A DNA stretch of 64,000 bases from NCBI GenBank assembly GCA_964621445.1, contig CAZUNO010000002.1, positions 96,001-160,000 of the forward strand, written 5' to 3'. The notes under the pieces are model-generated. The model was not told the DNA's origin. It was given only the letters and a program-made list of their open reading frames with translations, and did no database searches. The DNA is from Candidatus Hadarchaeota archaeon (GTDB lineage Archaea > CAYQAE01 > CAYVLA01). The translations under genes were made by a program, and so were the position numbers. How positions within the stretch are numbered: the first letter of the stretch is position 1; the number at the start of each line of letters is the position of its first letter. This document shows positions 2,718-59,323 of this stretch, in pieces.

Positions 2718-3722
2718 CTACCAGGCAGACCTTGCAGATTCCACCATCAACTCGATTGATTCCTTGGGCGTCTGGGGAGGTACCTCACATCCAGTTGAGA
2801 AAACAAAGAGACCTTTTCTATCCCTTTCCTTTGCAGCATTTACTATTGCCCTGGACTTGCTCTCGATATTCTCCGGAGAACCAAAACGTACGACCGAGGG
2901 GTCAAGGTTGCCCTTTATCACTCCATGATCCAGGTCCCTAAGGGAATCCTCAATATCAACCTTGTGGTCGACATCCACGATATCAACCATGTCATCGAGG
3001 TTCGTTAGGATCGCGGTGGTATCCCCGCATATATGCATCTGAACAAGAGCCCCTTCCTTTCCTATGGCCTTGGATAGAGCCCTATCATATGGAGCTAGCT
3101 TTTCCAGATATGTCTTTGGAGAAAGCACATCCATGGAGGAGGAGGCGTTCCCGATGGCGATCACGTCGGAACCCTCCTCGATCAGAACCTTGGCGAACTC
3201 GCTACTAACCTCCAGGCATTTGTCAAGGAGCGGTTCCACCTTTTCGTCTCCACGCATGAGATCTATTATCATGTTTTTGAATCCTCTCAACTGGGCAGCC
3301 AGCTGATATGCACTCATGACCCAGGAAATGACGGCAAATTCCTCCTTAGCCAAGCTTTTCACGGCACCTATCTTCATGGGGAATCTTCCCTCACTGGTAA
3401 CATCAGGAATGGGAATTTCCTCGACGTTCAGGGTGTCCAGGGCTGGCTTATCTAGTTTAGGAAAGTCGTTTTGGGGGCGGTAGGAGGTACTACCCATGGT
3501 CTCTGCCTCTATCAATACGTCGCTGGCCACGTTCACGGAGTCCACATCAAAGGCTCTCGCACATTTAAGCTGAGCCCTAGCCATGTCCTCGGCGTTCTCG
3601 CAGTAAGCCTTTATTGAAATATCCGAGATCTCGCAGGCGGTTGCCTTAAGAAATGGAGCAACGGATAATTCTTCAATGGGTCCTTCGGAACACCCTTTCA
3701 GGAATCTTTCTCTTGGAGTCAA
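2718..3722 (-). CDS. UroD/MtaA-CmuA family methyltransferase-like protein
   Basis: MTPRERF start, EAETMGS, Zn-binding HICG and C-terminal STGCEVP, GNLDP. Confidence 0.82.
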   Translation of the reverse strand: MTPRERFLKGCSEGPIEELSVAPFLKATACEISDISIKAYCENAEDMARAQLKCARAFDVDSVNVASDVLIEAETMGSTSYRPQNDFPKLDKPALDTLNVEEIPIPDVTSEGRFPMKIGAVKSLAKEEFAVISWVMSAYQLAAQLRGFKNMIIDLMRGDEKVEPLLDKCLEVSSEFAKVLIEEGSDVIAIGNASSSMDVLSPKTYLEKLAPYDRALSKAIGKEGALVQMHICGDTTAILTNLDDMVDIVDVDHKVDIEDSLRDLDHGVIKGNLDPSVVRFGSPENIESKSRAIVNAAKERDRKGLFVFSTGCEVPPQTPKESIELMVESARSAW

Positions 3723-11437: not shown

Positions 11438-12253
11438 TTAGGAAATCAGCACCAGGGCATCAAAAAGGGCTGACCCCACGGAATGGGTAATCCAGCTGGG
11501 AATGATTGATTTGCTTCTATAGTTGGCCCATCCAAATATTATGCCGGCCACCAAAGCGTAAGGAACCTCGATCGACGGCTTCCCCAGATGTAGGTAGGCA
11601 TAGGGAATGCTCTGAAATACTATTGCTCCCCACTTAGATTTCTTAGCGAATGTGAAGAGAACTAATCCCCGGAAGAAGAACTCACCCGCGAGCATTATTC
11701 CGGTAAAGATCAATTCGTAATATACGAAGTCACCAACGGTGACCGTGCCTCCATTATCCCAAATTGGATAGTATCCCCTCATCCCAGGTACGAACAGGCC
11801 AACTAGGGAAGCCAACAGGGCTAGAGTCAGGAGAAGGGCGGTGGTCCGAGCTGTTTTCCTACCGATTCCCAGTGAAAGCCCAATGGCCCTGAAATATATA
11901 CCCCCCTTGGCCAGCCAGAATAGACAAAGAGGTACTGCAAGGTAGATAAGGAGGTCCTCTAGCATCCGAGATTCGAGAGTTCTGAAGAACATGAGCTGAT
12001 CGGACATGGGAACTGCGAATACAAGGCCAGCCACCAGTATCTCCTCGGAACTCCACCTACAATACAGACCCACACCCAGGGATAACAATAGCCCGGGAAG
12101 TAAAACGTAGCTTTTATGATTCGGACCCGGGAAGCTGGCTAGTTTAAGGTATAGTAAGCAGAAAACCGCAAAACCGGAAATAATAGCTATCCTTCGAAAT
12201 GTAACCACGGTTAACCTAATAGGGGGTCTCGGATATTTGTGTTCCTTTGTCAA
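11438..12253 (-). CDS. CPBP (CAAX/Abi) intramembrane metalloprotease
   Basis: GEFFFRG, YAYLHLGK, SWITH motifs; hydrophobic. Confidence 0.82.
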   Translation of the reverse strand: MTKEHKYPRPPIRLTVVTFRRIAIISGFAVFCLLYLKLASFPGPNHKSYVLLPGLLLSLGVGLYCRWSSEEILVAGLVFAVPMSDQLMFFRTLESRMLEDLLIYLAVPLCLFWLAKGGIYFRAIGLSLGIGRKTARTTALLLTLALLASLVGLFVPGMRGYYPIWDNGGTVTVGDFVYYELIFTGIMLAGEFFFRGLVLFTFAKKSKWGAIVFQSIPYAYLHLGKPSIEVPYALVAGIIFGWANYRSKSIIPSWITHSVGSALFDALVLIS

Positions 12254-19644: not shown

Positions 19645-20718
19645 TTAGGGGAGGGAAGCCCGGGAACCATCGGCTTCCAATCCCCGGTCACGGATCCAAT
19701 CCCTCAACCAGCCTCCGATAAACAAGTTCTCTCTTCCTAGGTCCTTCATCTGCCTAGACCCGGTGAGAAAAATCGAGGCCCTAATCTGTCTCTCGACAAG
19801 ATCTATAAATTGGTTTAATCCTTCCTCGCCATCTACGGCCGCCTTAAGGAACGGGGATGCCATTCCAGCACAATTCGCCCCCAGAGCCAGGGCCTTAACT
19901 ACATCAATTCCATTCCGAATTCCCCCGCTGGCAATGACCCTTAGGCCCTCTACCTGCGTCGTTTCCAGGACGCTGGCTGCGGTAGGAATTCCCCATGTTC
20001 CCAGGGATTCGGCCAATTCCCTGCCCACGCCGCTGGCCCTGAAGGCCTCCACAGCCGCGAAGCTGGTTCCCCCACATCCCCCGGTATCAATCCATTCCAC
20101 GCCCACTGAAGCTAGAGACCTGGCAGTCTCGCTTGAGATTCCGCCACCGGTTTCCTTAACTATAACCGGGAGGTGGGAGCTGGACACGAACTCTTCGATG
20201 GTCTCCAGGCCGCCTCTGAAATCGACCTCACCCTCGGGCTGAGCCACCTCCTGCAGGGCGTTCAAGTGTATGGCCACGGCATCGACATCAACCTCTTCCA
20301 TGGCACTAAATACCGGTGCAAAATCGCGGGAAAGCAACTGGGGCAGGCCGATGTTTCCCACCAGGAGTATGTCTGGGGCCTGTTCTCTAACCATATAGGT
20401 ATCTGCTACATTTGGGTCCTCGATCATGGCCCGCATGCTGCCTAGTCCAAATCCCAGTCCGTTTCGCTGGGCAGCGCTCGCTAGAAGCCTGTTCCATTTC
20501 CTGGCTCCCTTAAACCCGCCGGTCATCCCACTGATCATCAATGGCATGTCAAGCCTTTTATCAAGGACATCCACCCCAATGTCCAGGGCAGCCTCATTAA
20601 TTTCCGGAAGTGCCTCATGAACTAGAGCAACACAATCGAGACCCGTACCTTCAAATTCTACGTCCTCCTTCAATACGACATCGACGTGATCGGCCTTCCT
20701 CCTCCTGGTTCCGGTCAT
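19645..20718 (-). CDS. fni: Type 2 isopentenyl-diphosphate delta-isomerase
   Basis: RRKADH, MTGG, GSMRA, HLNALQE..QPEG, VKETGGG, SGGIRNG. Confidence 0.95.
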   Translation of the reverse strand: MTGTRRRKADHVDVVLKEDVEFEGTGLDCVALVHEALPEINEAALDIGVDVLDKRLDMPLMISGMTGGFKGARKWNRLLASAAQRNGLGFGLGSMRAMIEDPNVADTYMVREQAPDILLVGNIGLPQLLSRDFAPVFSAMEEVDVDAVAIHLNALQEVAQPEGEVDFRGGLETIEEFVSSSHLPVIVKETGGGISSETARSLASVGVEWIDTGGCGGTSFAAVEAFRASGVGRELAESLGTWGIPTAASVLETTQVEGLRVIASGGIRNGIDVVKALALGANCAGMASPFLKAAVDGEEGLNQFIDLVERQIRASIFLTGSRQMKDLGRENLFIGGWLRDWIRDRGLEADGSRASLP

Positions 20719-20752
20719 TCGCACCCCTGACCCAACCTGCAATAACTACTTA

Positions 20753-21136
20753 TCAAGCTTTCTCCACCGTGGCTTCTTCCCCATCAACCACTAGCAGATC
20801 GCCGGTTTCAATCTTGGTTATGTCTATCCCATCAATGCAAGGGATACCCGCCAGTATGGCTCCGGTGGCAACAATGGTTTCCGTCTCCTCATTAATTATG
20901 GCCGCCGGTGCCAAGCCCCTCTTCTTAAGGCCATAGATAACGTAAGACCCGACCGTTGAACCCTTGCCCCTAGGGAATACCAGCACCTTTCCCCCAACCT
21001 TCTCTCCCTCCAATTGATGCCCCTTTTCCCTCACCACGCCAGTCTCGGGGTCCAGACCGCCATAGAAACTGATTGGCTCGCTGGTAACCAAGGCCCGACC
21101 TTTTGCCTTACCCGGATTGATCGTCCTTCCCTTCAT
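20753..21136 (-). CDS. Phosphomevalonate dehydratase small subunit (DUF126, AcnX swivel domain)
   Basis: ISFYGGLDP.TG, GKGSTVGSYV; located in the mevalonate cluster. Confidence 0.9.
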   Translation of the reverse strand: MKGRTINPGKAKGRALVTSEPISFYGGLDPETGVVREKGHQLEGEKVGGKVLVFPRGKGSTVGSYVIYGLKKRGLAPAAIINEETETIVATGAILAGIPCIDGIDITKIETGDLLVVDGEEATVEKA

Positions 21137-22319
21137 CTTCGATGGCTCCAATCAGATCATCAAGGTTCTTGAAAATTACCTTCTGTTGGCAGAAATTCGG
21201 AAGATAGTGGGCCGCCTTGGCAGAATTAACTCCAGTCGAGTTGAACCCCATTTTCTCAAGTGGGGTAACTACCATGCAGGTGTCGGCCACTAATTTCCCT
21301 CCCAATCCTTCAATTCTATCCGCCAATCCCATATTCTGGGCCGCCGTCTTCACCGACCTGGAGGTGCAGATCCATAGTGGTTTCTCGAAATTTTTCCCCT
21401 CCATGCGCTGAGCCAGTTGTAGTAGTTCACCGATCGAGGCGTGGGGACAACCTAAAATCACTATGTCCGGGATTTCTCCAGAGTTTAAGTCCCGCCGCTG
21501 TCGGTCCAAGTCATACTGAGTTATGGTGATTCTCTCCAGTCCCTTGCTGTCCATCCCCTCGGCTTCGGGGGTAATCTCTTCGACGTGGTACAGGGCGACC
21601 GCACCCGAGGCGGCCATCGCCGCTCCCAGTGATTTCAAGTGATCCACACTTGGGTCCTTCAAACCGCGGATATAAGGTTTCTTGTCCCCTGCTAGCTCAC
21701 CTATCCTATATCCCAGGGTCCCGTAATCACAGATATTTCGCAATTCTGCCTCTACCTCAAATACCATATCGGGCATTCTGTTTTCGTCAAGGTGCAGCCC
21801 ATAATTGGGCGTGACTCCGCAAATCGCTGCGGCAAGGGCCGAGGGTCCTCCTTCCCTATTGGTTCTAGCTCCTATTACCGAATTAGCAAATGACACGGCC
21901 GAGGACTCGCTCCAGGCGATGTGTTCCCTGAATCGTGGCAGGTTTCCAGCCAGGTAGGGTGTGCAGGTGGCACTCACCAACACGCCCATGGCCTTGAAGG
22001 CGTTTACTATCCTTTCCTGCTTACGGGCAAAATCCTCGGGGATCCCCATAACCCTCCAATCCCGAAGATCCATTCCAGCGGGATTCAGATAGGTCAGCGC
22101 TTTGACCTGAGCCCCCTTTTGCGCAAAATCCTCCAGAAACTCCATGCCCGGATCGCCTATTGATTTATGTGATACCCCCGAAACCTGGGCGGACCCAATC
22201 GGTATCATTCTCCGGGCTCCATACACATCACCAAGGCGCACCAGCAATCTGAATAGACGTTGAGCCACCTCTCCCCTCTCTCCCCCCAACATCCTCTCCT
22301 GTTCCCTTGTCAGGTACAA
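21108..22319 (-). CDS. Phosphomevalonate dehydratase large subunit (aconitase X catalytic domain, DUF521)
   Basis: TTG start LYLTREQE; TCTPYL, WSESSAV.FANSV.GARTNREG, GCPH, DTCMVV. Confidence 0.9.
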   Translation of the reverse strand: MYLTREQERMLGGERGEVAQRLFRLLVRLGDVYGARRMIPIGSAQVSGVSHKSIGDPGMEFLEDFAQKGAQVKALTYLNPAGMDLRDWRVMGIPEDFARKQERIVNAFKAMGVLVSATCTPYLAGNLPRFREHIAWSESSAVSFANSVIGARTNREGGPSALAAAICGVTPNYGLHLDENRMPDMVFEVEAELRNICDYGTLGYRIGELAGDKKPYIRGLKDPSVDHLKSLGAAMAASGAVALYHVEEITPEAEGMDSKGLERITITQYDLDRQRRDLNSGEIPDIVILGCPHASIGELLQLAQRMEGKNFEKPLWICTSRSVKTAAQNMGLADRIEGLGGKLVADTCMVVTPLEKMGFNSTGVNSAKAAHYLPNFCQQKVIFKNLDDLIGAIEDEGKDDQSG

Positions 22320-22320
22320 T

Positions 22321-23601
22321 TCAATCCTCCAGGTATTCCTCAATATCAATTTCCATGGGGAGCCCTGGTCTTTTGAATTCCTCCTTATCCTTCCCCCAGG
22401 GAACCGTGAGATCAAAACCCACCTTTGTGGTTATGTGGGTTTCCGGATCGGAGGATGGATCGAGGGAGGACCCCTTTTCTCTCCTGGTTACCAGGTCGCT
22501 ATCGGCCTGAAATCTCGTAGCCATCGCCCACTCTATTTCCTCCGATTTGTCGATATCTATGTCCTCATCAACCACGAAAAGGTGTTTCATGGATCGGTGA
22601 GCTCTGAATGCGGCATCGATTGCCCTTTCCGGGTCCTTCTCTTCCCTTCTCCTAATGCTCACCACTCCATGAAGCCAGGAGCAACCGCCGGGAGTGACCC
22701 TCACATCCAGCACATCACATTGCTTCTTCACTTCCCGATACATGCTGGCCTCCCTAGGCATCCCCATCAGTATCTTGTGCTCCATCCCACCCGGGAGTAG
22801 GGCGTGGAAGAGGGGATTTCTCCTGATCAATATCTCCTTGCATTCAACTACCGGCTGTAATCTCACCTTGTCGGGTGTCTGGGTCAGGTCAAGAAATGGA
22901 CCTTCGTCGTGGAGTTCACCGGTGAGCTCCATGATCATGATGATCTCCGCCGGTGGCACCAAATATCCCTTCATATCCATCAGGGGCGTTGGTTGCAGGG
23001 AGTTGGCAATGGATAGCTCGCTTACTCCGGGGGACTCGGATACTGCGGAGGCCACGAGGACCGAGATTGGATTCCCAATACAATAGGCAAATTTGGTGAG
23101 CCCCCTCCTGATATAGCTATCAAGGTCCCTTTTCACTATCCTAAGGACCAGCTGGTTTTCGGAAATCACCATGCCCCGGTGAAAGGAAGAATTCAGACCA
23201 TACTCCGGGTCCTTTGCCACCACAATTCCCGATGTTATGTATGGACCTCCATCGAATGGGTAATAGGTAGGGATCGGCAGGTTCAATAGGTCCGGCTCCA
23301 TCTCGATATAGTCCTCTGACTTCATTATCTGTGGATCCCTGGGTTGTGATATTGCATCAACCAGTTTTTCGGTTAGGTTTCCCTCCTCAATCCCAAGGCC
23401 CCGTGCAACGGAAAGTCGGCTGGAACAGATATTTCCCAGTACAGGGATATCGCGGTTTTTTACATTTTCAAAGATGATCGGGATTCCATCCAACGTACGC
23501 ATGATGGCGGGTATTTCAAATTGGATGTCCACTTCCTTTTGGACTCTTTTCAGAAGACCGGCACCCTCCAACTGGTTTACGAATTCACGCAACAAAGCCA
23601 T
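22321..23601 (-). CDS. UbiD-family decarboxylase (probable anhydromevalonate-phosphate decarboxylase)
   Basis: DGGPYITSG, SFHR, EGPF, EH..LMG.PRE, VDEDIDI, WAMATRFQ. Confidence 0.88.
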   Translation of the reverse strand: MALLREFVNQLEGAGLLKRVQKEVDIQFEIPAIMRTLDGIPIIFENVKNRDIPVLGNICSSRLSVARGLGIEEGNLTEKLVDAISQPRDPQIMKSEDYIEMEPDLLNLPIPTYYPFDGGPYITSGIVVAKDPEYGLNSSFHRGMVISENQLVLRIVKRDLDSYIRRGLTKFAYCIGNPISVLVASAVSESPGVSELSIANSLQPTPLMDMKGYLVPPAEIIMIMELTGELHDEGPFLDLTQTPDKVRLQPVVECKEILIRRNPLFHALLPGGMEHKILMGMPREASMYREVKKQCDVLDVRVTPGGCSWLHGVVSIRRREEKDPERAIDAAFRAHRSMKHLFVVDEDIDIDKSEEIEWAMATRFQADSDLVTRREKGSSLDPSSDPETHITTKVGFDLTVPWGKDKEEFKRPGLPMEIDIEEYLED

Positions 23602-23658
23602 GATACTCCTCCCTTTCAGATTCCACCAAACGATATATCTTTTTCGTCATTTGTCGAT

Positions 23659-24657
23659 TTAATCATCGTCATTTGACGAACTCACCCCTATTAGAGTGGG
23701 GATAGCCTCATACCCCGACTTTCGCATAGCTCCCACTACCCTATCACGCACCTCCGGTTCGGGAGTTAAGGCGATCATGTGCCCTCCCAGACCGCCTCCA
23801 GTCATCTTCGCCCCCTTCGCCCCCTCTCTTCTGGCAATCTCAACTAGATGATCAAGCTTCGGATGGGAGACCCCGATTTCCTGGAGCAGGCCATGATTGG
23901 CATACATTAGGTCCCCGACCGCGTCCAGGTCATGATCTCTCAATGATTTAACCGCGCTCTCTATGAGTTCTTCCGCCCGTAAGAAGATTCGTGAATATCT
24001 TTCTTCGTTTCTCTCCTTTCTCCTTCTAACACCAGCCACCGCCGTCTTGGTCCTACCTCTTATCCCCGTATTTCCCATTACCATGGGCATTGGCTCCCGT
24101 ACTGAAAGCCTCTCAACCGTATTATCTCCTCCCTGGAGGTTCTTTGCGAAGTAAATCATTCCCCCGAAGGTAGAAACGGTATTATCTATGCCCGAAGGGG
24201 TTCCGGCATAGGCCTTTTCCGCCTCATACGCTATCTCGTTGATATCCTGGGCCTTGAGGCCCAGGTCAAACTCCTGGTTCAGGGCCCTAGTAATGGAGAC
24301 ACAGAAGGCTGCACTGGATCCAATTCCCCCCGTGGTCTCCAGCTCTCCCTCAATGGTTATCTTAATGTTCTTTTCGGTGGGATCAAAGTTCGCGGCGTCG
24401 AAAATTCTAAGCACCGGCCCCGGTTCCAGAAAATCATCCGTAGAGCGGTTCAAGGCATTTAAACGGACGTCCTCCAGAGCCCATCCATCACCGACCAGAA
24501 AACCGGAGCCACGGAACCCCTCCAGCAAGGCCTCATTGGCTCTCTCAACCGTGGCTTTGATCTTTGAATCGATCGATGAGGCTATGGCCGGTATTCCATA
24601 TACTACGAAATGCTCGTTGAACAGGATGACCTTCCGAAACCCGATTCCGGTTCCCAT
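23659..24657 (-). CDS. mvk: Mevalonate kinase
   Basis: KVILFNEHFVVYG, GIGSSAA, GTPSGIDN, AKMTGGGLGG. Confidence 0.93.
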   Translation of the reverse strand: MGTGIGFRKVILFNEHFVVYGIPAIASSIDSKIKATVERANEALLEGFRGSGFLVGDGWALEDVRLNALNRSTDDFLEPGPVLRIFDAANFDPTEKNIKITIEGELETTGGIGSSAAFCVSITRALNQEFDLGLKAQDINEIAYEAEKAYAGTPSGIDNTVSTFGGMIYFAKNLQGGDNTVERLSVREPMPMVMGNTGIRGRTKTAVAGVRRRKERNEERYSRIFLRAEELIESAVKSLRDHDLDAVGDLMYANHGLLQEIGVSHPKLDHLVEIARREGAKGAKMTGGGLGGHMIALTPEPEVRDRVVGAMRKSGYEAIPTLIGVSSSNDDD

Positions 24658-24799
24658 ATCGATCCCATTCCCGTATTTATAACCCCACTTATGTGTATTA
24701 CCGCCGGGATAATCTACGAGAATATTTAATTGGTCCCGCGCTCGATGACCGGTGTAAAAGCCTCGCAAATCTTTTTTCTAGATCGGTGGATAATGTAAG

Positions 24800-25618
24800 A
24801 TGTCAAGTATTGTCGTCAAGATTGGGGGATCATTCCTTACCGCAAAATCCGAAAGCCATAGATTCCCCCTAAATATAGAAGAGATCAGGAGCCAGGCCAG
24901 GGAGTTCTTAAACCTGGGCCGATTGAAGGGCATATCCAGGGATATTCGTCATATCCTAGAATCGCACAGGATCCTGCTGGTACATGGGGCAGGTCCATTT
25001 GGACATGCGATGGTAGAGGGATTGAAATCCGGGTATGACATTGACCCCATGCACATCCACGCCTCCATGCTGGTATTAAACGAATTTGTCATCCGGGCAT
25101 TAACGGATATCGGGGTGCTGTGTGAGAGGGTGAGCCCCATGGACTCGGTGCTTCACCGGGGAAAATTCCACACCGATCGATTGGTCAAGGAGATGGTATC
25201 AAAGGAGAGATCAGGTATCCTTCCTGTTAGTCATGGTGATATCGTCCCTAGCAAGAACGGTGAGATCGATGGACACCAGGTAATCTCCGGGGACTTGGTC
25301 GTGCGCGATTTGTCATTGTCCTGGCCCGCCGATCGCCTGATAATGGTGACTGATATGAATGGAATCCTGGATACCGACCCAAGAAAGGGTGAGGGGAGAA
25401 CCATTCCAAGGATCACCCTGGATAAGTGCACGGACCTACTGAAAGGGAGGAGTGGAAAGGGATCCGATGTAACCGGTGGTATACTCCAGAAGGTAATTAG
25501 CTGTGCTGAGCCCATTTCCGCCGGCATACCGGTTCAAATTATCTCTGACGAAATCAATAATGCCCTAATCGCAGCCTGTAATGGCCAGGAAGTGGGAACA
25601 ATCATAGAGCCTGGGTGA
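24800..25618 (+). CDS. ipk: Isopentenyl phosphate kinase
   Basis: VKIGGS, VHGAGPFGH, HGDIV, SGD, DVTGGI..K; divergent from mvk. Confidence 0.88.
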   Translation: MSSIVVKIGGSFLTAKSESHRFPLNIEEIRSQAREFLNLGRLKGISRDIRHILESHRILLVHGAGPFGHAMVEGLKSGYDIDPMHIHASMLVLNEFVIRALTDIGVLCERVSPMDSVLHRGKFHTDRLVKEMVSKERSGILPVSHGDIVPSKNGEIDGHQVISGDLVVRDLSLSWPADRLIMVTDMNGILDTDPRKGEGRTIPRITLDKCTDLLKGRSGKGSDVTGGILQKVISCAEPISAGIPVQIISDEINNALIAACNGQEVGTIIEPG

Positions 25619-36033: not shown

Positions 36034-36201
36034 CTACAAAATCTGTTCTAGTAGTTAGTTTTCTTTATGGAAAACTATTTCTCAAAATGTATTTTTTCCG
36101 GTATGATTCAATTTGTAGTGATGGTTAGGTATTGTGAGGTCTATGGCCTCCAAAAGAAGCACCACCAAAAACTTTTTTACCACTGGTTGAAAAGCGGTCC
36201 T

Positions 36202-37152
36202 GTGATAATTCTCAACCGTAAGGAAGGCAGATACTACTCCAGAGAAGCCAAAGTTGTCGAGAACCCCGAGGATCTAAAGGCCATTCTCAGCAGGATCAGG
36301 TGGAAGATCCTGGAGCTCCTTTCCGAAGAGCCGATGTACCCGGCAGAAATCGCTAGAAATCTGCATATGCAGGAACAGAAGGTCCATTATCACGTCAAGT
36401 ATTTGAGAAATGCAGGTGCCATCGAGCCCTGCCGCCGGGAACGCATCAGAGGGGGACTGGCAACCTACTACAAGCCTTCTTCTCCGGCCTTCGCCGTTGT
36501 TCTGCCGTTTGGGGAAAGCGAGTTCTCGAACATCAAACCCGGTCTTGAGGAAAATGCTCTGACATCCTTCCTTTCCTCCTTTACCAGGGATGGAACACTC
36601 AATGCGCGCATGATTGTGGGATCACCGATACCTCACGGCCCATTCAAGGCCACAGCAAGAGACGGCCATTACGTCGCCCATCTCGGTCTCTTCCTGGGTC
36701 ACTTCGTGAAGGTTCCGGACCATTTCTGTGTCAAGTTGGATACGGATCTCAAGGCAGAGAAGGAGGAGGACCAGGACCTGATCCTAATCGGCGGGCCGGG
36801 AACCAATCTCATAACCAGCGAGGTAAACCCCGAGCTGCCAATACGTTTTAGCGAGGACAACTTCTGGCGGGGAATAGAATCGAGTCAAAGCGGGGATCAC
36901 TATACCCAGGACTCCGTGGGTATCGTCGCCAAGATACCAAATCCAAAGAATGATGATGCTTCCATTCTGGTGCTGGCCGGTCTGAGGGCGATTGGAACCA
37001 AGTCCACCGTTCTTGGTCTCTGCGACCAGTGGGAGGAACTCCTGAAGGGGTATCACGGCCAGGACACCTGGGCCTGTGCGGTTAGGGGATACGATTTCGA
37101 TGGAGACGGGAAGGTGGATGGGGTGGAGGTACTCGAGAGGGTTACCTCCTAG
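36202..37152 (+). CDS. ArsR-type HTH protein with a C-terminal alpha/beta domain
   Basis: RWKILELL..PMYPAEIA..VHYHVK.L; C-terminal LILIGGPGTN, LAGLRAIGT, DFDGDGKVD; GTG start inferred. Confidence 0.75.
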   Translation: MIILNRKEGRYYSREAKVVENPEDLKAILSRIRWKILELLSEEPMYPAEIARNLHMQEQKVHYHVKYLRNAGAIEPCRRERIRGGLATYYKPSSPAFAVVLPFGESEFSNIKPGLEENALTSFLSSFTRDGTLNARMIVGSPIPHGPFKATARDGHYVAHLGLFLGHFVKVPDHFCVKLDTDLKAEKEEDQDLILIGGPGTNLITSEVNPELPIRFSEDNFWRGIESSQSGDHYTQDSVGIVAKIPNPKNDDASILVLAGLRAIGTKSTVLGLCDQWEELLKGYHGQDTWACAVRGYDFDGDGKVDGVEVLERVTS

Positions 37153-37306
37153 CCAGTTGGGAGGCCACGGGGAAACATAATTGCACGAATAATATCACTA
37201 GGTGACACTTTTAAGAAACCTGGAGAAGATAGAAACCCACGAACTGGCACCAAAGCCCTATTACCATTAATTGGAAAACGGGCTGGTCCGGACGGGAGGA
37301 ATAAAC

Positions 37307-38332
37307 ATGGCCAAAATGAAACAGGCTAACCTGATAGGTGAAACCAAGCTAGAGCTTGAGGAGGCAGAAATCCCTGAGCCCAAACGACGGGAAATCCAGA
37401 TCAAGATCGAGGTATGCGGTATCTGTGGGTCGGATGTACATGCATATTACGGAAAACATCCTTTCGTAAGCCCGCCCATCGTGCCTGGACACGAGTTCTC
37501 GGGAACCATATCCAAACTTGGAGAAGGAGTCGGTGGGTTCAAAGCGGGGGATCGGGTCACCGTTGAGCCCTCACTTACCTGTGGTGAATGTTATAACTGC
37601 AGACATGGACTCTACAACATCTGTGCAAACCTTGAGGTACTTGGTTGCCAAGCTCCGGGGGCCTTTGCTCAATACATAAGCGTACCCGCAGAGAAGGTAT
37701 ATTCCCTCCCCGACGAGCTCGATTTCGATGCCGGTGCACTGGTGGAACCCTCCGCAGTGGGGGTACACGCGGTCAGGAAAAGCGAGCTCGGTCTCGGGGA
37801 TCGAGTCGTCGTTTTGGGTGCGGGAGTGATCGGACAGACGATAGTTCAGGCTGCTAGAGTGGCCGGGGCCGGTGAAATCATCGTCACCGGGCATCACGAG
37901 GGAAGGCTTGAGGTGGCCGAGGAGTTGGGTGCCGATGTAACATTCCTCGCCGGGGACACCGTGAAATTCATCGAGGACAACTACGGCCCCGACGGGATTG
38001 ATATCGTCTATGAGGCCGTGGGAGTTGGCACCACCATAAATCAGGCCATCGATATAGTACGAAAGGGAGCAAAGGTCATAGTAGTGGGGGTATTTGGCAA
38101 ACACCCGGAGACCAAGGTCGGTCTCATACAGGATAAGGAGATCGACATGCGAGGGGCCCTGATGTATGTACAGGAGGACTACCCCAGGACCATTGATCTT
38201 ATTGCCAAGGGTGAAATAAAGACTGAGCCCCTCATAACCTCCCGTTATCCGCTCGAACGGGTCTCAGAAGCCTTCGATCTAATTATGAACCAAAGGGACG
38301 ACACCCTGAAGGTCCTTCTGGACATTCCTTAG
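37307..38332 (+). CDS. Zn-dependent sugar-alcohol dehydrogenase (MDR family)
   Basis: CGICGSD, GHEFSG, structural Zn CGECYNC..C, GAGVIG. Confidence 0.92.
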   Translation: MAKMKQANLIGETKLELEEAEIPEPKRREIQIKIEVCGICGSDVHAYYGKHPFVSPPIVPGHEFSGTISKLGEGVGGFKAGDRVTVEPSLTCGECYNCRHGLYNICANLEVLGCQAPGAFAQYISVPAEKVYSLPDELDFDAGALVEPSAVGVHAVRKSELGLGDRVVVLGAGVIGQTIVQAARVAGAGEIIVTGHHEGRLEVAEELGADVTFLAGDTVKFIEDNYGPDGIDIVYEAVGVGTTINQAIDIVRKGAKVIVVGVFGKHPETKVGLIQDKEIDMRGALMYVQEDYPRTIDLIAKGEIKTEPLITSRYPLERVSEAFDLIMNQRDDTLKVLLDIP

Positions 38333-41300
38333 ATCCCATTCCTGGCGCCAAACGTCTTCAGGCCGAATACTAGGACCATGCAGCCTATCAATAGGCTCAA
38401 AACGGCAAGCGGGAACGTGTTCCCGGTGGATGTCCTGAATCCAACATCCCCGGAAGGCTCTTCCATATTTTCATCTCCAAAGCGCGATGCGACCTCGCCG
38501 CTTACCTGGAAGTCCACCCCCCTCGCCTCCGTTCTGACCTCGGGCTTGTAGTAGGAATATGCCGTGCTTGTCCCTCCCTTGGCCTTTACCGGTAGCAATG
38601 CCCTTATGTCAAACCCTATCTCGAGTTCCTCGCCTCTCTGAAGATCGTCGACATAGAAGATCACCTTCCTTCCACCTATCTCGTATCGGGTGGCCAGTCC
38701 ATCGGAAATTACCTGTTCGAGGCTGGAGTGCACGGGGGAGAATCCCGTGGGAACCGAAATGTCCAGGATCATCATGCCCGTCGAGTTGTAGGCCCCGGTG
38801 TATCTTGCCCTGGCAAGAACGTGAACTATGTCGTCCACCTCCACGCTTGTGGTATTGTATTCGATATCGAGCTCGAATTCGGGATTCGGATTCAAATCGC
38901 CAGGAAGGTTGAATCTCTTGGCCAGCTGAATTGTTACCTCACCCTCCCCCTTCATCTCGACAACCAGCTCCTCTCCTGCCAACGGGATGTCAATCACGTT
39001 TAGGACATCGAAGTTCTCCGCGGTTAGTTCCAGCGTGGTTAGCTTCTCGCCATCGACCTTTACCTCTATGGAGGAGTCAATGGTTCGAGTCTGCAGGCGT
39101 GCCGCCTTCATCAAGGCCTTCAAAGCCCACACCGTGTCCTGGGTGCTGCAGAAGCCACCCAAGGAGTTCCTCTGAGATGACAGCCAACGTACGGCTTGTT
39201 CGGCCTCTGACCTGCCCTCCAACATGAGTGCAAGAGCGGCGTAGGAAGTCGTCTCCACCGCATTTGATCTCTCTGACCCAGCGGCCCAGAATATCCCATG
39301 CTCATCCGTTCGGGCCATTTCCAGAAGGCGGCTTATCGCCTGCTCTGCATGGGGAGAACCAACCTTCTCCAGAAGAAGGGCCGCCAGGGCAAGAGTGTAG
39401 GGGTCCTCGGCCTGGATGGCGTTCTCCTCGATATACTGCACGGCCGCCTGAAGGCTGTCCTCGGCATTTCCATAATCTGATAGTGCTATGCCCACAAATG
39501 CAGTTAGAGCACTTCTGGACGATGGATCAAGACCACCAAGCATCTCCTGGTGACAAACGAAGCCAACGGGACTGAAGGAGCCGTTTCCATTTTGATGATC
39601 CCCAATCCAGGAGGCAGCATCCGAGAGCACGGTACTATCTATGCTCATTACCTCCCTGCATTCGCTGAAGATATCCAGGACAAATGAGGTCAGGAAGAGA
39701 CTGCCCTGGTCATCGTTTTCACCGAATGCCGAGAAGGATCCATCGCTCCTTCGGAAGGTCAGCTCTCGCTGGTAGCCGGTGGTCAAGAAATGCTCGGCCT
39801 TGGCCCTTATCTCCGGCTTGATTTGCCCGGTTGCATCCAGGTACCGGAGAATCTCCAGATCAGGGGCCATGAACATCATGTTCTGTTCCCCACACCCGTA
39901 GGGCATACCCAAAAGATCGTCCACCCCGTTGATGGTCTGTGCAACCATGCTTGGAGTAACTGCAAGCTGGATAGTTCCAGAGTCATCTACCATGGCCGGA
40001 GGCATGCTTAGATTGAATTTAAGGGGGCTATCCTCGGTGATTATGTCGTTTACCACCGTTTCACAGGGAGTTCCCTCGGGCTCCACCCGTATGTTCCTCT
40101 TAACCGCGTCCGCCCTCTCATGAGTACGGGCCGTTATCTCTATCTTGAACTGGCCAACCTTCTCCGGCCTGATGGTGAAACCTATTGAGGCCACGGAGTT
40201 ACCGGGAACGGTTACGATCTTTACCCTTTCATCAACTAGTTGGAACCACGAGTCCTCCTTTAGCTCCACCTGCACCTTCTGACTGTTCTCCACGTAATTG
40301 TAGATCTGTACCAATACCGGGAACTCCTCGCCCCGGGTAACTGCATAGGGCAGGTCAGGCTCCACGAAGAAATCCTGGAAAACCTTTAGCGAGCCTTCCG
40401 TCATCCCTATGCCCTGGGGGGAGGAGCTGACGGCGTGCAGCTTCCAGGTGGTTATGGTGTCGGGGGCAGTTAGCTTGACGCTGGCCCGGCCGGTCTCGTC
40501 GGTCATCAGGGTCGGGTTCCAGTACCAGGTTTCAGGGAAAAACTGCCTAACCCGCTTTACCTCGGCCAATTCGCTGTCCTGACCGGCGGATTGGGATTTT
40601 GGCGCGGCAAAATTATCTCCACCGGCCGCCTCCAGAACCTGTAATCCATCCCTACGTAACCAATCGGGCTGGCCCTGGGGCACATCCAAGGAGCTCGAGG
40701 TCATGACCTGAATACCCGCATCCTCGAAAACCTCCATTGATCCTCGTCTCTCCGTTAAAGGCCACAGGCGGTGGCCATCGGGATGAGCCTCGGCCTGAGG
40801 ACGCATGAAGATCTTCTCCAGCTCGTTGAAAACCTGTTTTAGGTTGAGCCTCCCCTCGTTCAGGGCATATACCGATTCATCCACTATGGACAGGCCTATC
40901 ATGGTGGCAACGCCTGAGCTCGATTCGATGTCCAATGTGACCTCTTCTCCCGGTTCGCATTTATCCTTGGAAAACTCCGCCGACAGATTCACGGGGTTTA
41001 CCAGGTCAACGTCGAAGGGAATCGAGTCCGCGGCCACCTCCAGGTTGGGATTTATCACGTAGGCAACCAGCTTGGCCTTGGGCATCATATCGGGAGTTAC
41101 CTTGAAGGAGATATACCTCCCATCAGCATAACCCGAGTGTATGGTCCTGCCACCTGATACCACATCATAATAGGCATTTCTATCTGCGGTGGTCAAGACC
41201 TCGAATGTGACCTCTTCCCCCACACTCACCTCGGCAGGCGAGATCTGCACTATGTGAACGAAGTAGCCACCCGGGGAGTACTGTGCATTTAAGGTGATCT

Positions 41301-42588
41301 GATTCTCGGATTCCGATCCCGGAAGGCTGGCCTTTAGATCGGCACTCGTACATTTGTCCGGCACATCGATCTCGACCGTGGTCATGCCCCTGAAGGTATT
41401 CACGCTTCGGGTTGTCCTGGTTGTCTTTCCGTTCTCCAGGCGATATACGACCTCGAATTCAACGCTTTTATCCAGGGGTTCTCCGTCCGGGGTCTCTGTT
41501 ACTATCATTACATCCATGGGTAGACCAGGCTTTACGGTCTGGCTGGCGGGGATTACCTGAATCACGGTCGGGGAGTCGGCTACCTTGAGAAGCTTTGTGT
41601 CCTTCTCCTCATGTCCCGCTCCATCGGTTACCGTGACATTTAGAATGACGCTGCCCAGGCCACCGGAACCGACGGTACCGGCAAGATACCCGGCCGCGGG
41701 GATTTCGAACTCGGCGACGCCGTTGGAAAGCCTTGAGTTGAATGTCGCGAACTTCTCCCAGTGAGCAACGTACTTGTAGGCCTCCACGAAAACGGTTCCC
41801 TCAACCGGTTTTCCGAAAAAGTACTCGGCATTTACCTGACCAGTTATCTCTTCATCGACCAGGAACCATCCCTTGGGCGTCTCCACACCTACATCGAATT
41901 TTGGAAGAACGTATTTCTCCACCCTGAAATCCACAGTGGCCGTTCCCGATTCGCTGTTTGCAGTTATCTTCCATGTTCCGGTGTTTACCTCTTTAGCCAG
42001 CGAAAGCTCGAAACTGGCCACACCAAATTCGTTGGCCGAGAGCTCCTTTCGGAATACCTTTATGCCTTTTGCATCGGATATGGATACGTTGATTTTCGTT
42101 TCAGTCGGTTTCAGGTCGGCGCTTAAGGCCAGCACGCGGCCGTAGAGGGTCTGACCTGGCTTGTAGATAGGCTTGTCGGTTTCTATTAACAGGGCTACCG
42201 AATCCGCCAATATTACCTCTCCCGATACGTGCTCTCTATCGTCCCTCCCGGCGAGGACCAGGTCGTAGGTCCCCTTCTCGATACCGGGAACATCGAAGCG
42301 TGCTATTAGATGTCCATCAGGTCCAGTTCTCCCCCTAAAAAGCTCCACCTCTTTCTCCTGATTTCTGATGAAAAGCGATACCCTGCGGTCAACCGGCCTA
42401 CCGGTATCGGGAGAGAAGGAAGAAATGCTAACCGAGGACTCAGTGCCTACATAAAACCTGTTTGGGGCCAGCACAATAAACTCGGCCGATGCGGCCTTTC
42501 CAACCATGAGGGTGGGAGATATAATCTGTAAAAAAAGAAACAGGCAGACGACCAGAGAGCCATATCGATTTTCCGTCAAAGCAATCAC
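38329..42588 (-). CDS. Alpha-2-macroglobulin/CD109-like thioester-containing protein, secreted with a C-terminal TM anchor
   Basis: Signal peptide ..AASA; TDKPIYKPGQ; YVLPKF; FPETW; PDTITTW; MPYGCGEQNM; DGSFSAFG; GGFCSTQDT; receptor-binding-domain motifs VPTGF and YSYYKP; C-terminal hydrophobic helix. Confidence 0.93.
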   Translation of the reverse strand: MIALTENRYGSLVVCLFLFLQIISPTLMVGKAASAEFIVLAPNRFYVGTESSVSISSFSPDTGRPVDRRVSLFIRNQEKEVELFRGRTGPDGHLIARFDVPGIEKGTYDLVLAGRDDREHVSGEVILADSVALLIETDKPIYKPGQTLYGRVLALSADLKPTETKINVSISDAKGIKVFRKELSANEFGVASFELSLAKEVNTGTWKITANSESGTATVDFRVEKYVLPKFDVGVETPKGWFLVDEEITGQVNAEYFFGKPVEGTVFVEAYKYVAHWEKFATFNSRLSNGVAEFEIPAAGYLAGTVGSGGLGSVILNVTVTDGAGHEEKDTKLLKVADSPTVIQVIPASQTVKPGLPMDVMIVTETPDGEPLDKSVEFEVVYRLENGKTTRTTRSVNTFRGMTTVEIDVPDKCTSADLKASLPGSESENQITLNAQYSPGGYFVHIVQISPAEVSVGEEVTFEVLTTADRNAYYDVVSGGRTIHSGYADGRYISFKVTPDMMPKAKLVAYVINPNLEVAADSIPFDVDLVNPVNLSAEFSKDKCEPGEEVTLDIESSSGVATMIGLSIVDESVYALNEGRLNLKQVFNELEKIFMRPQAEAHPDGHRLWPLTERRGSMEVFEDAGIQVMTSSSLDVPQGQPDWLRRDGLQVLEAAGGDNFAAPKSQSAGQDSELAEVKRVRQFFPETWYWNPTLMTDETGRASVKLTAPDTITTWKLHAVSSSPQGIGMTEGSLKVFQDFFVEPDLPYAVTRGEEFPVLVQIYNYVENSQKVQVELKEDSWFQLVDERVKIVTVPGNSVASIGFTIRPEKVGQFKIEITARTHERADAVKRNIRVEPEGTPCETVVNDIITEDSPLKFNLSMPPAMVDDSGTIQLAVTPSMVAQTINGVDDLLGMPYGCGEQNMMFMAPDLEILRYLDATGQIKPEIRAKAEHFLTTGYQRELTFRRSDGSFSAFGENDDQGSLFLTSFVLDIFSECREVMSIDSTVLSDAASWIGDHQNGNGSFSPVGFVCHQEMLGGLDPSSRSALTAFVGIALSDYGNAEDSLQAAVQYIEENAIQAEDPYTLALAALLLEKVGSPHAEQAISRLLEMARTDEHGIFWAAGSERSNAVETTSYAALALMLEGRSEAEQAVRWLSSQRNSLGGFCSTQDTVWALKALMKAARLQTRTIDSSIEVKVDGEKLTTLELTAENFDVLNVIDIPLAGEELVVEMKGEGEVTIQLAKRFNLPGDLNPNPEFELDIEYNTTSVEVDDIVHVLARARYTGAYNSTGMMILDISVPTGFSPVHSSLEQVISDGLATRYEIGGRKVIFYVDDLQRGEELEIGFDIRALLPVKAKGGTSTAYSYYKPEVRTEARGVDFQVSGEVASRFGDENMEEPSGDVGFRTSTGNTFPLAVLSLLIGCMVLVFGLKTFGARNGI

Positions 42589-57270: not shown

Positions 57271-58341
57271 CTATCTGGGGAACTTGCCGTATTTTTTCAG
57301 GGCATTGAACATGGATTGAACGTTCCTTATGGGAACTATTTCCTCTATCTCGCTGCTGGACCCCAGCACATATCCGCCTCCAGGCCCGGCATCGCTTATC
57401 CTGTCTGCTACCTCCTGGGCCACATCGGACACAGTGCCAAGGGGAAGGGTATCGGAACAGTCAATATTACCGAATAGGACAACCCGGTCGCCAATCTTCT
57501 CCTTGACCTTGATCATCTCCATTCCGCAGAAGGGCTCAAGGGGATGTATGCCGGAAATGCCGCAATCCAGGAGATCATCCAATATTGGCCAGAGGTCACC
57601 GTCAGAGTGAAATACGTACTTTATATCATGCTTCCGGAAGGCCCTTACGATCCTCTTCAGGTAGGGAAAGAACATCTTCCTTAGAAGTTCCGGGCGGAGG
57701 AAGGTCCCGTGGTCCGTGCACACGTCCTCCCCGCCAAATACCACCGGTGCTATTTCCTTTTCAGCACATATCTTGGCAAACTTGACATGGGCCTCCCCCA
57801 GGTTCTCTATGTCCCTCTCGACCCGGCGTCTCTCTGAATAGAGAACCTTTGAGAAAAGCATTAGACCCAGACGGTTCTGGGCATAGGCACCTATCCCCGG
57901 AACCCAGTTGCCGTTGTGGTACAGGTAATAGACGGGGTCGATAAGTTCCTGAGTTTCCCGGTAATGTCGACAGGCGTGTTCAGCCATGCGAGCAATCTGG
58001 TCCTCATCCACCTTCTCAATTGGATTCTGGAGAAAATCCTCAACGCTTCTTATCTCTCTTTGAACTATCCATGTGGTGTAGGAATATCTCTTCCGCACTT
58101 TTCCCCCTTCTTCCTCCTCCACCACCCCATCTGGTGAGGCACCCTCTGTACTCATTACAAAGCGCAGGGCATCTATGCCCAGCTCCAAACATACCTTGCG
58201 CCCCGCGAGCATGAGGTCCTTATCACTTAACTCTCCCGCGTAATGCCTTAGCAAGGAGCTGGAGGAGATATTATCATGGGTTGCTACCCGGTCCGTCTCC
58301 TCATGGTTCATTGCTTTCAGGAATCTATCCTTGGGTTTCAT
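57271..58341 (-). CDS. Uroporphyrinogen decarboxylase (UroD/MetE-like) family protein
   Basis: MKPKDRFLKAMNHEETDR, FHSDG, HPLEP, GNID, GGGYVLGSS. Confidence 0.85.
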   Translation of the reverse strand: MKPKDRFLKAMNHEETDRVATHDNISSSSLLRHYAGELSDKDLMLAGRKVCLELGIDALRFVMSTEGASPDGVVEEEEGGKVRKRYSYTTWIVQREIRSVEDFLQNPIEKVDEDQIARMAEHACRHYRETQELIDPVYYLYHNGNWVPGIGAYAQNRLGLMLFSKVLYSERRRVERDIENLGEAHVKFAKICAEKEIAPVVFGGEDVCTDHGTFLRPELLRKMFFPYLKRIVRAFRKHDIKYVFHSDGDLWPILDDLLDCGISGIHPLEPFCGMEMIKVKEKIGDRVVLFGNIDCSDTLPLGTVSDVAQEVADRISDAGPGGGYVLGSSSEIEEIVPIRNVQSMFNALKKYGKFPR

Positions 58342-59323
58342 TGCCCATTTCCCCAATTGAAACCGGTTCTCCATCCAGAGCCGACCTTCGGGTGGCCAGG
58401 GCCATTTCCACCGCCTTGCGACCGTCCTCACCGGTTATCGATGGGTTCCTGTTATTACGTATGCTTTCCACGAAATCCTTCAGCTCCTCCAGGACCCCAT
58501 CCTTTGAAGGTATTTGTTCTCCTTCCAATATCTTCTCCTCTCCACCCTCTTTCTTGTATATGATTCTCTTTTGGCTATTATCATAGAAAAGGGTACCTTC
58601 CCGGCAGAAAACTTCTCCTCTGTATCTACCCATTGTCGAGGATACCGCGGCATTTAAGGTCCCTATGGACCCGTTTTCAAACCTATATGAGGCGAAAATT
58701 GTATCCATAAAATCTACCCCATCGAGAACATACCTTCCACCCCTTGCAAATACCTCTTCAGGCTCGCCGAGGATGTGTCTCATGTAATCAAGTTCATGAA
58801 CGTTTACCTCTAGTAGGATGCCGCCGCAAAGGTCGCGCTTGCACCTCCACCCGCTGGTGAACTTCCAGCTTCCCACCCGCATGACGGCCATGGACATGGG
58901 ACTACCGATTTCATCCTTTACTATCCTTGCCGACTCCTTGAAAATGGGCAGAAGCCTTAGAACCTGACCGGTCATCAGGTTGACGCCGTTTGAATCGCAG
59001 GCATCTATCATTAGGTCGCAGTCCTCAAGGGTTAGTGCCAGGGGCTTCTCACAGAACACGTGAATCCCGGCATCAGCCGCTTTTACGACGTATTCACGAT
59101 GAAGATATCCGGGGGTGGATACGATAACCCCGTCGAGCCCGGGTGTTTGAAGGAGTTCCTTATAATTGGGACATGACTTTCCACCAAACTCCTCGGCAAT
59201 ACGGGTCGAAGAATCTGGATCGACGTCATAAGTTGCCACTAACTCTGCCCCATCAATTTTCACGAGTCTGCGCAGGAGACTATGACCATGCCCTCCGCAT
59301 CCCACTATACCTATTCCTATCAT
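58325..59323 (-). CDS. Gfo/Idh/MocA oxidoreductase
   Basis: GIVGCG, HVFCEKP, GGILLEVNVHELD, TGEDGRKA. Confidence 0.92.
   Translation of the reverse strand: MIGIGIVGCGGHGHSLLRRLVKIDGAELVATYDVDPDSSTRIAEEFGGKSCPNYKELLQTPGLDGVIVSTPGYLHREYVVKAADAGIHVFCEKPLALTLEDCDLMIDACDSNGVNLMTGQVLRLLPIFKESARIVKDEIGSPMSMAVMRVGSWKFTSGWRCKRDLCGGILLEVNVHELDYMRHILGEPEEVFARGGRYVLDGVDFMDTIFASYRFENGSIGTLNAAVSSTMGRYRGEVFCREGTLFYDNSQKRIIYKKEGGEEKILEGEQIPSKDGVLEELKDFVESIRNNRNPSITGEDGRKAVEMALATRRSALDGEPVSIGEMGNETQG

Follow-up and report, generated by a model that had tools for sequence, protein, structure and literature searches.

Does an archaeon encode a thioester protein of the animal type, and what would such a protein do on a prokaryotic cell? 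The question is raised by a gene in a 64-kb stretch of DNA, here called the window, from a genome labelled Hadarchaeota, for which a first-pass annotation had claimed a complete alpha-2-macroglobulin (A2M) architecture of animal-type sequence in an archaeal host. The gene (38329..42588, minus strand; ORF listing, translation, Pfam and PDB matches) is a single intact open reading frame (ORF) that starts with GTG, has no internal stops and encodes an alpha-macroglobulin-family thioester protein of 1419 residues, P0001. P0001 belongs to a known and annotated prokaryotic family that has been discussed in part in print, and as judged from sequence this family is animal-like and not E. coli-like.

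When P0001 was compared with the PDB by phmmer, the highest score was obtained with CD109 (421 bits, E 5.8e-125, residues 129-1318), followed by human A2M (377 bits), A2ML1 (374), C3 (324) and mosquito TEP1 (303). Because the match to CD109 reaches an E value of 5.8e-125, the similarity is not due to chance. Comparison of the thioester domains (TEDs) alone gave 197 bits for CD109, 162 for A2ML1, 145 for A2M, 144 for TEP1 and about 113-120 for C3/C4 as against 23 for YfhM, the A2M of E. coli. A hidden Markov model of the family gave single animal copies 370-540 bits and YfhM 37 bits. In blastp, the median best high-scoring pair of four animal proteins was 257-360 bits against 15 family members, 118-169 bits against 14 proteins of the next prokaryotic groups (group 2, with the motifs CFEQT and CGEQS and including two archaeal genomes of another family) and 27-51 bits against YfhM. 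The animal-type sequence claimed in the first-pass annotation is thus borne out by the lack of bacterial macroglobulin (bMG) domains, by CGEQN in place of CLEQ, by the plug motifs described below and by the best PDB matches, which are CD109, A2M and A2ML1. The relatives P0072 and P0114 also have no bMG domains; they contain MG3, A2M_recep (P0072 also MG4) and a TED scoring 242-256 bits.

The layout of the superfamily was found along the whole protein, with the Pfam models MG2, MG3, MG4, A2M_BRD, A2M, TED_complement and A2M_recep all scoring above their cut-offs, so that the complete architecture claimed from MG2 to A2M_recep is present; a scan against NCBIfam returned no family for P0001 at E <= 0.01. 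All the motifs quoted earlier (TDKPIYKPGQ, YVLPKF, FPETW, PDTITTW, LLGMPYGCGEQNM, GYQRELTFRRSDGSFSAFG, GGFCSTQDT and GFVCHQEMLGG) occur in the translation. A predicted Sec signal peptide (residues 1-36; 42481..42588; this and all following features of P0001 lie on the minus strand) was judged directly from the sequence by its basic n-region with Arg, its hydrophobic core of about 20 residues (SLVVCLFLFLQIISPTLMV) and an A-S-A|E site, which is also present in one same-family relative (L005). MG2 (residues 135-223; 41920..42186; PF01835, 68 bits) is linked to MG3 (Pfam stretch, residues 225-279; 41752..41916; PF17791, 53 bits) by the motif Y226-V-L-P229 (41902..41913), which by its motif would be equivalent to Tyr214-Pro217 of A2ML1. 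MG4 (residues 349-421; 41326..41544; PF17789) scored 25.9 bits, barely above the cut-off, and is followed by the bait-region domain A2M_BRD (residues 448-576; 40861..41247; PF07703, 86 bits) and by the bait region proper, at about residues 603-676 (40561..40782), which is variable in sequence and length and predicted to be disordered. The plug motif R681QFFP685 (40534..40548), by motif the counterpart of Arg730-Pro734 of A2ML1, precedes the A2M domain (residues 687-776; 40261..40530; PF00207, 100 bits). The TED (TED_complement, residues 880-1160; 39109..39951; PF07678, 244 bits) carries the thioester motif G898-C-G-E-Q902 (39883..39897, from the translation) and His1013 (39550..39552), which lies 114 residues past Cys899 and coincides in the alignment with the catalytic His known from C3, C4B, A2ML1 and CD109; both sets of codons lie where the first-pass annotation had placed them. 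A CUB domain, for which Pfam gave no match in P0001, is suggested by strands that flank the TED on both sides. The receptor-binding or MG8 domain (A2M_recep, residues 1269-1353; 38530..38784; PF07677, 58 bits) is connected by a Gly/Pro/Glu-rich linker of about 30 residues (38419..38508; translation and relatives' tails) to a C-terminal transmembrane (TM) helix of 20 residues (residues 1391-1410; 38359..38418; Kyte-Doolittle hydropathy 2.6) and a short tail, KTFGARNGI, with two basic residues (K and R). Both the signal peptide and the C-terminal helix of the earlier claim are therefore seen, the former with its A-S-A|E site and the latter with its hydropathy.

The residues expected to be critical hardly vary in the family. 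In two alignments of 15 rows (A1) and 29 rows (A2), the thioester residues C899, G900, E901 and Q902 were invariant throughout (15/15 and 29/29). All four YVLP residues were conserved in 15/15 rows of A1, and Y226 and P229 in 29/29 rows of A2. R681, F684 and P685 of the plug motif and His1013 were likewise invariant in 29/29 rows. The least conserved 30-residue segment of P0001 in the 29-row alignment was 644-673, with a majority fraction of 0.28 compared with 0.38-0.82 elsewhere, and the distance from H602 to R679 ranged from 62 to 95 residues across the 29 rows. Such variability of sequence and length is consistent with a protease bait.

An AlphaFold2 model of residues 224-1360 was calculated from the 29-row family alignment. 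The model has a mean pLDDT of 77.6 and a pTM of 0.53 and shows beta-sandwich domains that flank an all-helical TED, while the bait segment is of low confidence (pLDDT <50 at model residues 352-392 and 416-450). When the model was compared with the PDB by Foldseek, native CD109 (8s3o, TMq 0.48) and native A2ML1 (7q1y, 0.49) came at the top, followed by native A2M forms and TEP1 (0.46-0.49), whereas activated CD109 and A2ML1 reached 0.34-0.35 and the Salmonella and E. coli A2Ms 0.38-0.39 at ranks 44-46 with 14-16% identity. Since native CD109 and A2ML1 outscore both the activated and the bacterial forms, the model appears to resemble the native animal-type conformation. A structure prediction had been suggested in the first-pass annotation as a check; the arrangement of beta-sandwich domains and TED was obtained with native CD109 and A2ML1 as best matches, whereas the pTM of 0.53 limits what the model says about domain packing.

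The position of His1013 was examined by aligning the TEDs. The segment GFVCHQEMLGGL of P0001 aligns without gaps to APVIHQEMIGGL of C3d, which contains HQEMIGG, and this supports the earlier claim that the His is equivalent to the catalytic His of C3. The ungapped offset places the counterpart of His1013 at residue 1126 in C3 (a chain of 1663 residues) and at residue 1125 in C4-B, which we take to be the catalytic histidines of these proteins. His1013 also aligns with a His in CD109 and A2ML1 and with an Asn in human A2M. A His was present at this column in 35/36 family rows, in 5/6 animal rows (Asn in CPAMD8) and in 3/14 group-2 rows, without ExMxGG, and YfhM has a Tyr.

These features are most readily explained if P0001 is a monomeric, surface-tethered trap for foreign proteases that is triggered through its bait and acts covalently, a reading that we consider probable. 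P0001 would be exported through Sec and its signal peptide removed, and the C-terminal helix, with the basic tail inside, would hold an ectodomain of about 1350 residues on the archaeal cell surface. In the native state, a thioester between Cys899 and Gln902 would be buried in the TED and the RQFFP plug would sit in a channel lined by YVLP. A foreign protease cutting the exposed variable bait (about residues 603-676) would release the plug and let the domains rearrange. The thioester would thereby be exposed, and attack by His1013 would yield an acyl-imidazole to which the protease could couple through its amine or hydroxyl groups. The protease would then be bound covalently and kept sterically from large substrates, for example S-layer and surface proteins. 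In the sections of Nielsen 2022 consulted here, Tyr214-Pro217 and Arg730-Pro734 of A2ML1 are described as the plug-in-channel residues, the trigger of the conformational change, with Arg730 and Phe733 conserved across all human A2M-family proteins, and the His of A2ML1, C3 and C4B is described as attacking the nascent thioester to form an acyl-imidazole that is reactive also with hydroxyl groups. CD109 and A2ML1 are, in the passages available of the published accounts, monomeric inhibitors that require thioester conjugation. The anatomy of P0001, which is seen in the protein itself, fits the three steps described there for monomeric alpha-macroglobulins (bait cleavage, conformational change and thioester conjugation), whereas the chemistry of the trap would be that of its homologues.

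Several points weigh against a protease trap. Thioester formation, bait cleavage and inhibition are, for the whole prokaryotic family, presumed by homology. The pTM of the model allows the domain arrangement of P0001 to be trusted only moderately. Neither a protease gene nor a conserved partner was found beside the A2M gene in the window or in 12 related loci. Moreover, the same His lets C3 and C4B label surfaces, so that the sequence is also compatible with a tagging role. P0001 might accordingly be a covalent tagger or adhesin resembling complement or TEPs, in which the thioester couples to glycan hydroxyls on viruses, neighbouring cells or mat polymers and the membrane tether glues the target to the cell, for defence or mat adhesion. 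The invariance of the His at the C3/C4B position in all 29 rows and the membrane tether of P0001 agree with this idea, as does the label, microbial mat metagenomes, of the two DNA runs of one study that hold most of the sampled words of the gene (shares 0.94 and 0.88; partial holders were hypersaline lake metagenomes). However, Pfam detected neither an anaphylatoxin nor a C345C/NTR domain, the window and the 12 loci showed neither a convertase-like gene nor any other conserved partner, and a hypervariable bait of variable length is a hallmark of broad protease capture. His1013 itself cannot separate a trap from a tagger because the protease inhibitors A2ML1 and CD109 share it. We therefore regard the tagger as unlikely, and of the covalent trap or opsonin-like protein proposed in the first-pass annotation we retain the trap, while an opsonin or glycan role found no specific support.

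The trap might alternatively be turned inwards, as a regulator that captures the cell's own proteases when they stray back to the surface. No linked protease gene was seen in the window or at the 12 related loci, and the family spans lineages with very different protease repertoires; a role in self-regulation is thus improbable, and a trap for foreign proteases remains the preferred reading.

How P0001 is held at the membrane sets it apart from most of its relatives. A C-terminal TM helix with a basic tail was found in only 7 of 83 family rows, six of which (from four distinct genomes) belong to the window's clade and one to Hydrogenedentota, while the Methanosarcinales members terminate directly after MG8. 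Among 29 rows whose N-termini were compared, which included 8 Methanosarcinales rows out of about 46 such loci, an N-terminal lipobox ([SA]GC[IL]) was present in all seven complete Methanosarcinales N-termini, and a Cys followed the hydrophobic core in 4/4 Chloroflexota rows. In the four rows that belong to the window's clade, the lipobox position reads ISPTL, LSPAL, ISPVV or VSPSL and has no Cys. The window's lineage thus appears to have exchanged the usual N-terminal lipid anchor of the family for a C-terminal helix, and this swap of anchors is what is new here. The resemblance to the C-terminal anchoring of CD109 is convergent and not a trait of the prokaryotic family; we know of no glycosylphosphatidylinositol (GPI) anchoring in archaea. 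The contrast with E. coli-type A2Ms drawn in the first-pass annotation therefore holds for CLEQ and for pbpC, and fails at the level of the family for the lipoprotein character, since members from Methanosarcinales and Dehalococcoidia have lipoboxes.

A search of the host genome for C-terminal tails showed that 70 of 2473 ORFs (>=200 aa) end in a TM segment followed by basic residues, and several of these tails carry a PEP-, IPE- or IGE-like motif ahead of the helix. Two genes of the exosortase/archaeosortase family are located outside the window (G000:C2:79898-80566 and G000:C19:27284-28000; PF09721, 61 bits each), and a 271-residue protein in the window (11438-12253, minus strand) matches the NCBIfam model 'CPBP family archaeomyxosortase MrtA' with 165.9 bits against a cut-off of 200, making it a possible C-terminal sorting protease. 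We considered P0001 as a substrate of an archaeosortase and do not favour this reading, as its tail has no PEP/IGE-like motif and no NCBIfam sorting signal at E <= 0.01, although short sorting-signal models can escape detection. Because these motifs are absent, the tail is treated as a plain TM anchor. Five Planctomycetota members (L053, L058, L060, L064 and L075) have tails of about 60 residues that look like dockerins (…DLDxxxxVDFxDF…), some Planctomycetota members have N-terminal extensions of 200-370 residues, and P0073 and P0106 carry Pfam PF13385. These tails and extensions point to alternative tethers for what would be the same trap.

Is the gene native to the archaeon? The host genome (3.2 Mb in 89 contigs, completeness 96%) contains an archaeal 16S gene, and the window encodes the archaeal core genes aIF2-gamma, aIF5B, RpoE, S6e, L7Ae and Hef nuclease as well as mevalonate kinase and isopentenyl-phosphate kinase. 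Since archaeal core genes share the window with the A2M gene, the contig is archaeal, and the archaeal host given in the first-pass annotation is confirmed. A bacterial or animal contaminant contig in an archaeal bin, or a decaying recent transfer, would be suggested by the estimated contamination of 4.22% and by the bacterial nearest neighbours of the window's clade in the trees described below (97/95). Such an artefact is nevertheless very improbable in view of the archaeal translation, transcription and mevalonate-pathway genes on the same 64-kb window, the GC content of the A2M gene (0.54, near the 0.48-0.54 of the remaining window), the intact ORF, and orthologues with the same neighbouring gene in 3/3 same-family genomes. 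This neighbour is a convergent gene for a zinc alcohol dehydrogenase (ADH; 37271..38332, plus strand; Pfam ADH_N/ADH_zinc_N), which lies at the 3' end of the orthologue in each of the three family relatives (L004, L005 and L006); the orthologues are 58-65% identical to P0001. The A2M gene is present in single copy in the host genome and was found in 4/5 genomes compared in the host phylum, namely in all four of family f1 (the window included) and not in the one of family f2, and the same-family genomes are labelled Hadarchaeota. The A2M gene is thus native to a small uncultured archaeal lineage labelled Hadarchaeota and is no contaminant. A tblastn search against plasmids gave 17 records, but their identities were all <26% and no record spanned 80% of the query, so that nothing points to carriage on a plasmid. 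No RNA run was listed as holding the gene.

The neighbourhood offered no functional partner. We sought pbpC, a protease or a dockerin/cohesin as a conserved partner in the window and 12 related loci and found none; only the ADH gene and one Band_7 gene recur, both within the window's family. The ADH gene is a synteny marker. The Band_7 gene lies upstream of the A2M gene in the window and recurs at one of the two relative loci with sufficient flank. Two genes from the A2M gene, at 36067-37152 (plus strand), lies the gene of a 361-residue protein that has an ArsR/HVO_A0114-type helix-turn-helix and a weak match to the archaeal S_layer_C outer domain (25 bits), and no NCBIfam match. A mevalonate cluster at 19645-25618 encodes type 2 IPP isomerase, DUF126, an aconitase-X-like protein, a UbiD-family decarboxylase, mevalonate kinase and isopentenyl-phosphate kinase, and presumably resembles the archaeal-type pathway via anhydromevalonate phosphate; its aconitase-X-like protein matches cis-3-hydroxy-L-proline dehydratase models below cut-off. 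Two homologues of MtaA/CmuA-family methyltransferases (uroporphyrinogen-decarboxylase fold) are encoded at 2718-3722 and 57271-58431, both on the minus strand, with scores below the NCBIfam cut-offs. To our knowledge, the host lineage is not known as methanogenic.

The first-pass annotation conveyed a sense of rarity, which does not agree with the distribution of the family. When one genome from each of 185,579 species was scanned for RQFFPETW or [MI]P[YF]GCGEQ, 583 stretches were obtained, and a relative is encoded by 557 of them. Related loci thus occur widely in archaea and bacteria, and the family is already annotated. The best 80 of these 557 loci comprise, by title, 48 archaeal loci (Methanosarcinales and allies, two Hadarchaeota, one Altiarchaeales and one Micrarchaeota) and 32 bacterial loci (Sedimentisphaerales, Pirellulales, Phycisphaerae, Omnitrophota, Hydrogenedentota, Nitrospirales and Dehalococcoidia). 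Of the 7999 proteins scored in a word-indexed search, 2741 passed a threshold of E <= 0.001. Its top eight proteins, named 'CD109 antigen' or without a name, show 59-69% identity, and the subsequent entries, at 45-52%, come from ANME-2, Methanosarcinales, Methanolobus, Methanococcoides, Methanomethylovorans, Methanogaster and two Planctomycetota. The names in use are 'alpha-2-macroglobulin family protein' at NCBI and 'CD109 antigen' at JGI. When residues 160-1359 were used in an exhaustive HMMER search of representatives (50% clusters), 16,717 scored at E <= 0.001, and with the stricter limit of E <= 1e-30 the number was 3,467; of 10 listed representatives that were looked up, one was a named animal protein, one was in a cluster with bacterial names and eight were nameless. 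As a single gene, P0001 is therefore ordinary within its family. Directly downstream of the A2M-family gene of a Phycisphaerales bacterium (L064) lies a gene for a 1023-residue VIT + VWA protein (L064:10563-13634, plus strand), a domain pair that we take to be that of the animal inter-alpha-trypsin-inhibitor heavy chains. Archaeal A2M homologues with an intact CxEQ have been described, and the consulted part of Makarova et al. 2021 (PMC8416519) regards those of Methanomicrobia, such as Methanolobus psychrophilus, as probably acquired from bacteria.

The relationship to the animal proteins was examined with two trees. A quick tree covered 57 rows, aligned from RQFFPETW through MG8 (678 columns kept). 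These were 31 family loci, selected out of 83 so as to span the taxa, 5 HMMER family representatives, 14 group-2 rows, 6 animal rows and E. coli YfhM. The six animal rows are all deuterostome (fish A2ML1-like, catfish, two sea urchins and crinoid CPAMD8; one near-duplicate was omitted) and are long mis-fused or multidomain models. A careful tree (IQ-TREE LG+C20 PMSF, 52 rows, 679 columns) was calculated without YfhM, the long rows P0139 and P0141 and two duplicates. Both trees are effectively unrooted and have no CD109, C3/C4/C5 or insect TEPs among their rows, and they agree with each other. The careful tree recovers the window's clade as monophyletic (100/100) and places it inside a 17-row set with Planctomycetota, Nitrospirota, Hydrogenedentota and Omnitrophota (97/95), separate from the Methanosarcinales clade. 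Because the clade sits among bacterial family members, an inter-domain transfer likely lies behind it. The transfer would not be recent, because the bacterial members found are at most ~50% identical to P0001 and the gene is syntenic in 3/3 family relatives. A recent transfer inside bacterial A2Ms, which the first-pass annotation had named as the outcome that would speak against it, is thus seen in the branching among bacterial members and not in the recency. Other archaea (L007 and L008, from genomes G011 and G034, and G036) carry a different A2M group with CGEQS and a Tyr at the His column; this CGEQS group is 28-31% identical to P0001, and neither tree places it within the animal-like family.

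In the careful tree, the six animal rows group together (100/100), and their clade is joined to the prokaryotic family (38 rows, 100/100), where it adjoins Dehalococcoidia (100/97), while the remaining prokaryotic groups fall outside the family and the animal clade. The animals sit on a long stem (1.19), and in an AU test a tree with the prokaryotic family monophyletic without animals was not rejected (p = 0.148). With this p value, the animal clade may branch either from within the family or as its sister group. Within these limited trees, the prokaryotic family looks like the nearest prokaryotic kin of the animal A2M-like proteins. We tentatively raise the further possibility, though we consider it doubtful, that the family, which has GCGEQN, HxEMxGG and the plug motifs, lacks bMG domains and is distributed among free-living anaerobic archaea and bacteria, gave rise to the entire animal A2M/CD109/complement superfamily by a single ancient transfer into the animal stem. 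A transfer from prokaryotes to animals is compatible with the position of the animal clade inside or beside the family and with the four animal proteins scoring about two times higher against the family than against group 2. The relevance to the origin of TEPs suggested by the first-pass annotation is hence plausible from the trees, in which the animal rows join the family and which are compatible with either direction of transfer. In the published view, as given in the parts consulted (including Nielsen 2022), the superfamily arose in animals and the bacterial forms are structurally distinct and were taken from animals. A literature search that did not cover subscription journals found no paper in which the animal proteins are related to, or derived from, this prokaryotic family. 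A transfer from prokaryotes to animals, if true, would reverse the published view on the origin of bacterial A2Ms.

The family matters more than the single gene, since it bears on the origin of thioester immune proteins: it combines an animal-type layout with the catalytic His and the plug motifs, groups with animal sequences in trees, and is frequent among microbes of mats and sediments in which an association with animals is not obvious. It could also offer a simple, non-glycosylated model of an animal-type trap. The single gene adds a small point, a lineage in which a C-terminal helix in place of a lipid anchor converges on the topology of CD109.

Among the known systems, one archaeal counterpart is P0072 of Methanolobus psychrophilus R15 (AFV24188.1, 'A-macroglobulin like protein'), which agrees with P0001 in its Pfam set and shows 46% identity across 95% of the query. 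The Methanomicrobia homologues of Makarova et al. 2021 belong to the same family as P0001, and AFV24188.1 may be the protein listed there as WP_015053894.1. The Methanosarcinales proteins differ in having a lipobox and ending after MG8, whereas the window's clade has the C-terminal TM helix and no lipobox Cys. YfhM (ECAM) and Salmonella A2M (PDB 5a42 and 4u48) are similar in possessing a thioester and a bait and in being monomeric, membrane-tethered protease traps that protect the cell envelope. YfhM, however, contains bMG1, bMG2, bMG3, bMG5, bMG6, bMG10 and CUB_A2MG (with a weak TED of 33 bits), none of which is found in P0001; its thioester motif is CLEQ and its His column holds a Tyr, where P0001 has CGEQN and a His; and pbpC adjoins yfhM in E. 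coli, whereas no pbpC occurs among the neighbours of P0001. C3 and C4B share with P0001 the GCGEQ TED and a catalytic His inside an identical HQEM-x-GG motif. P0001 differs from C3/C4/C5 in lacking an anaphylatoxin or C345C/NTR domain (Pfam, E <= 0.01) and two-chain processing sites, and no convertase partners are evident. A2ML1 (PDB 7q1y and 7q5z) is similar in its monomeric inhibitor layout, its acyl-imidazole His and its plug-in-channel motifs, and differs in being secreted and glycosylated, without a membrane anchor. CD109 (PDB 8s3o native, 9fx2/9fx3 activated) is the top match of P0001 in both sequence and fold, with ~26% identity in the structural alignment. The two proteins share the GCGEQN motif and the His at the same TED position, have no additional N-terminal MG domains, start their TEDs at similar places (~925 in CD109 and residue 880 in P0001) and are attached to the membrane C-terminally of MG8. 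In the portions of the CD109 literature consulted, the protein has a GPI anchor behind MG8, is cleaved by furin and is shed upon activation. CD109 is thus GPI-anchored, furin-processed before MG8 and shed after activation, whereas P0001 has a TM helix after a 30-residue linker.

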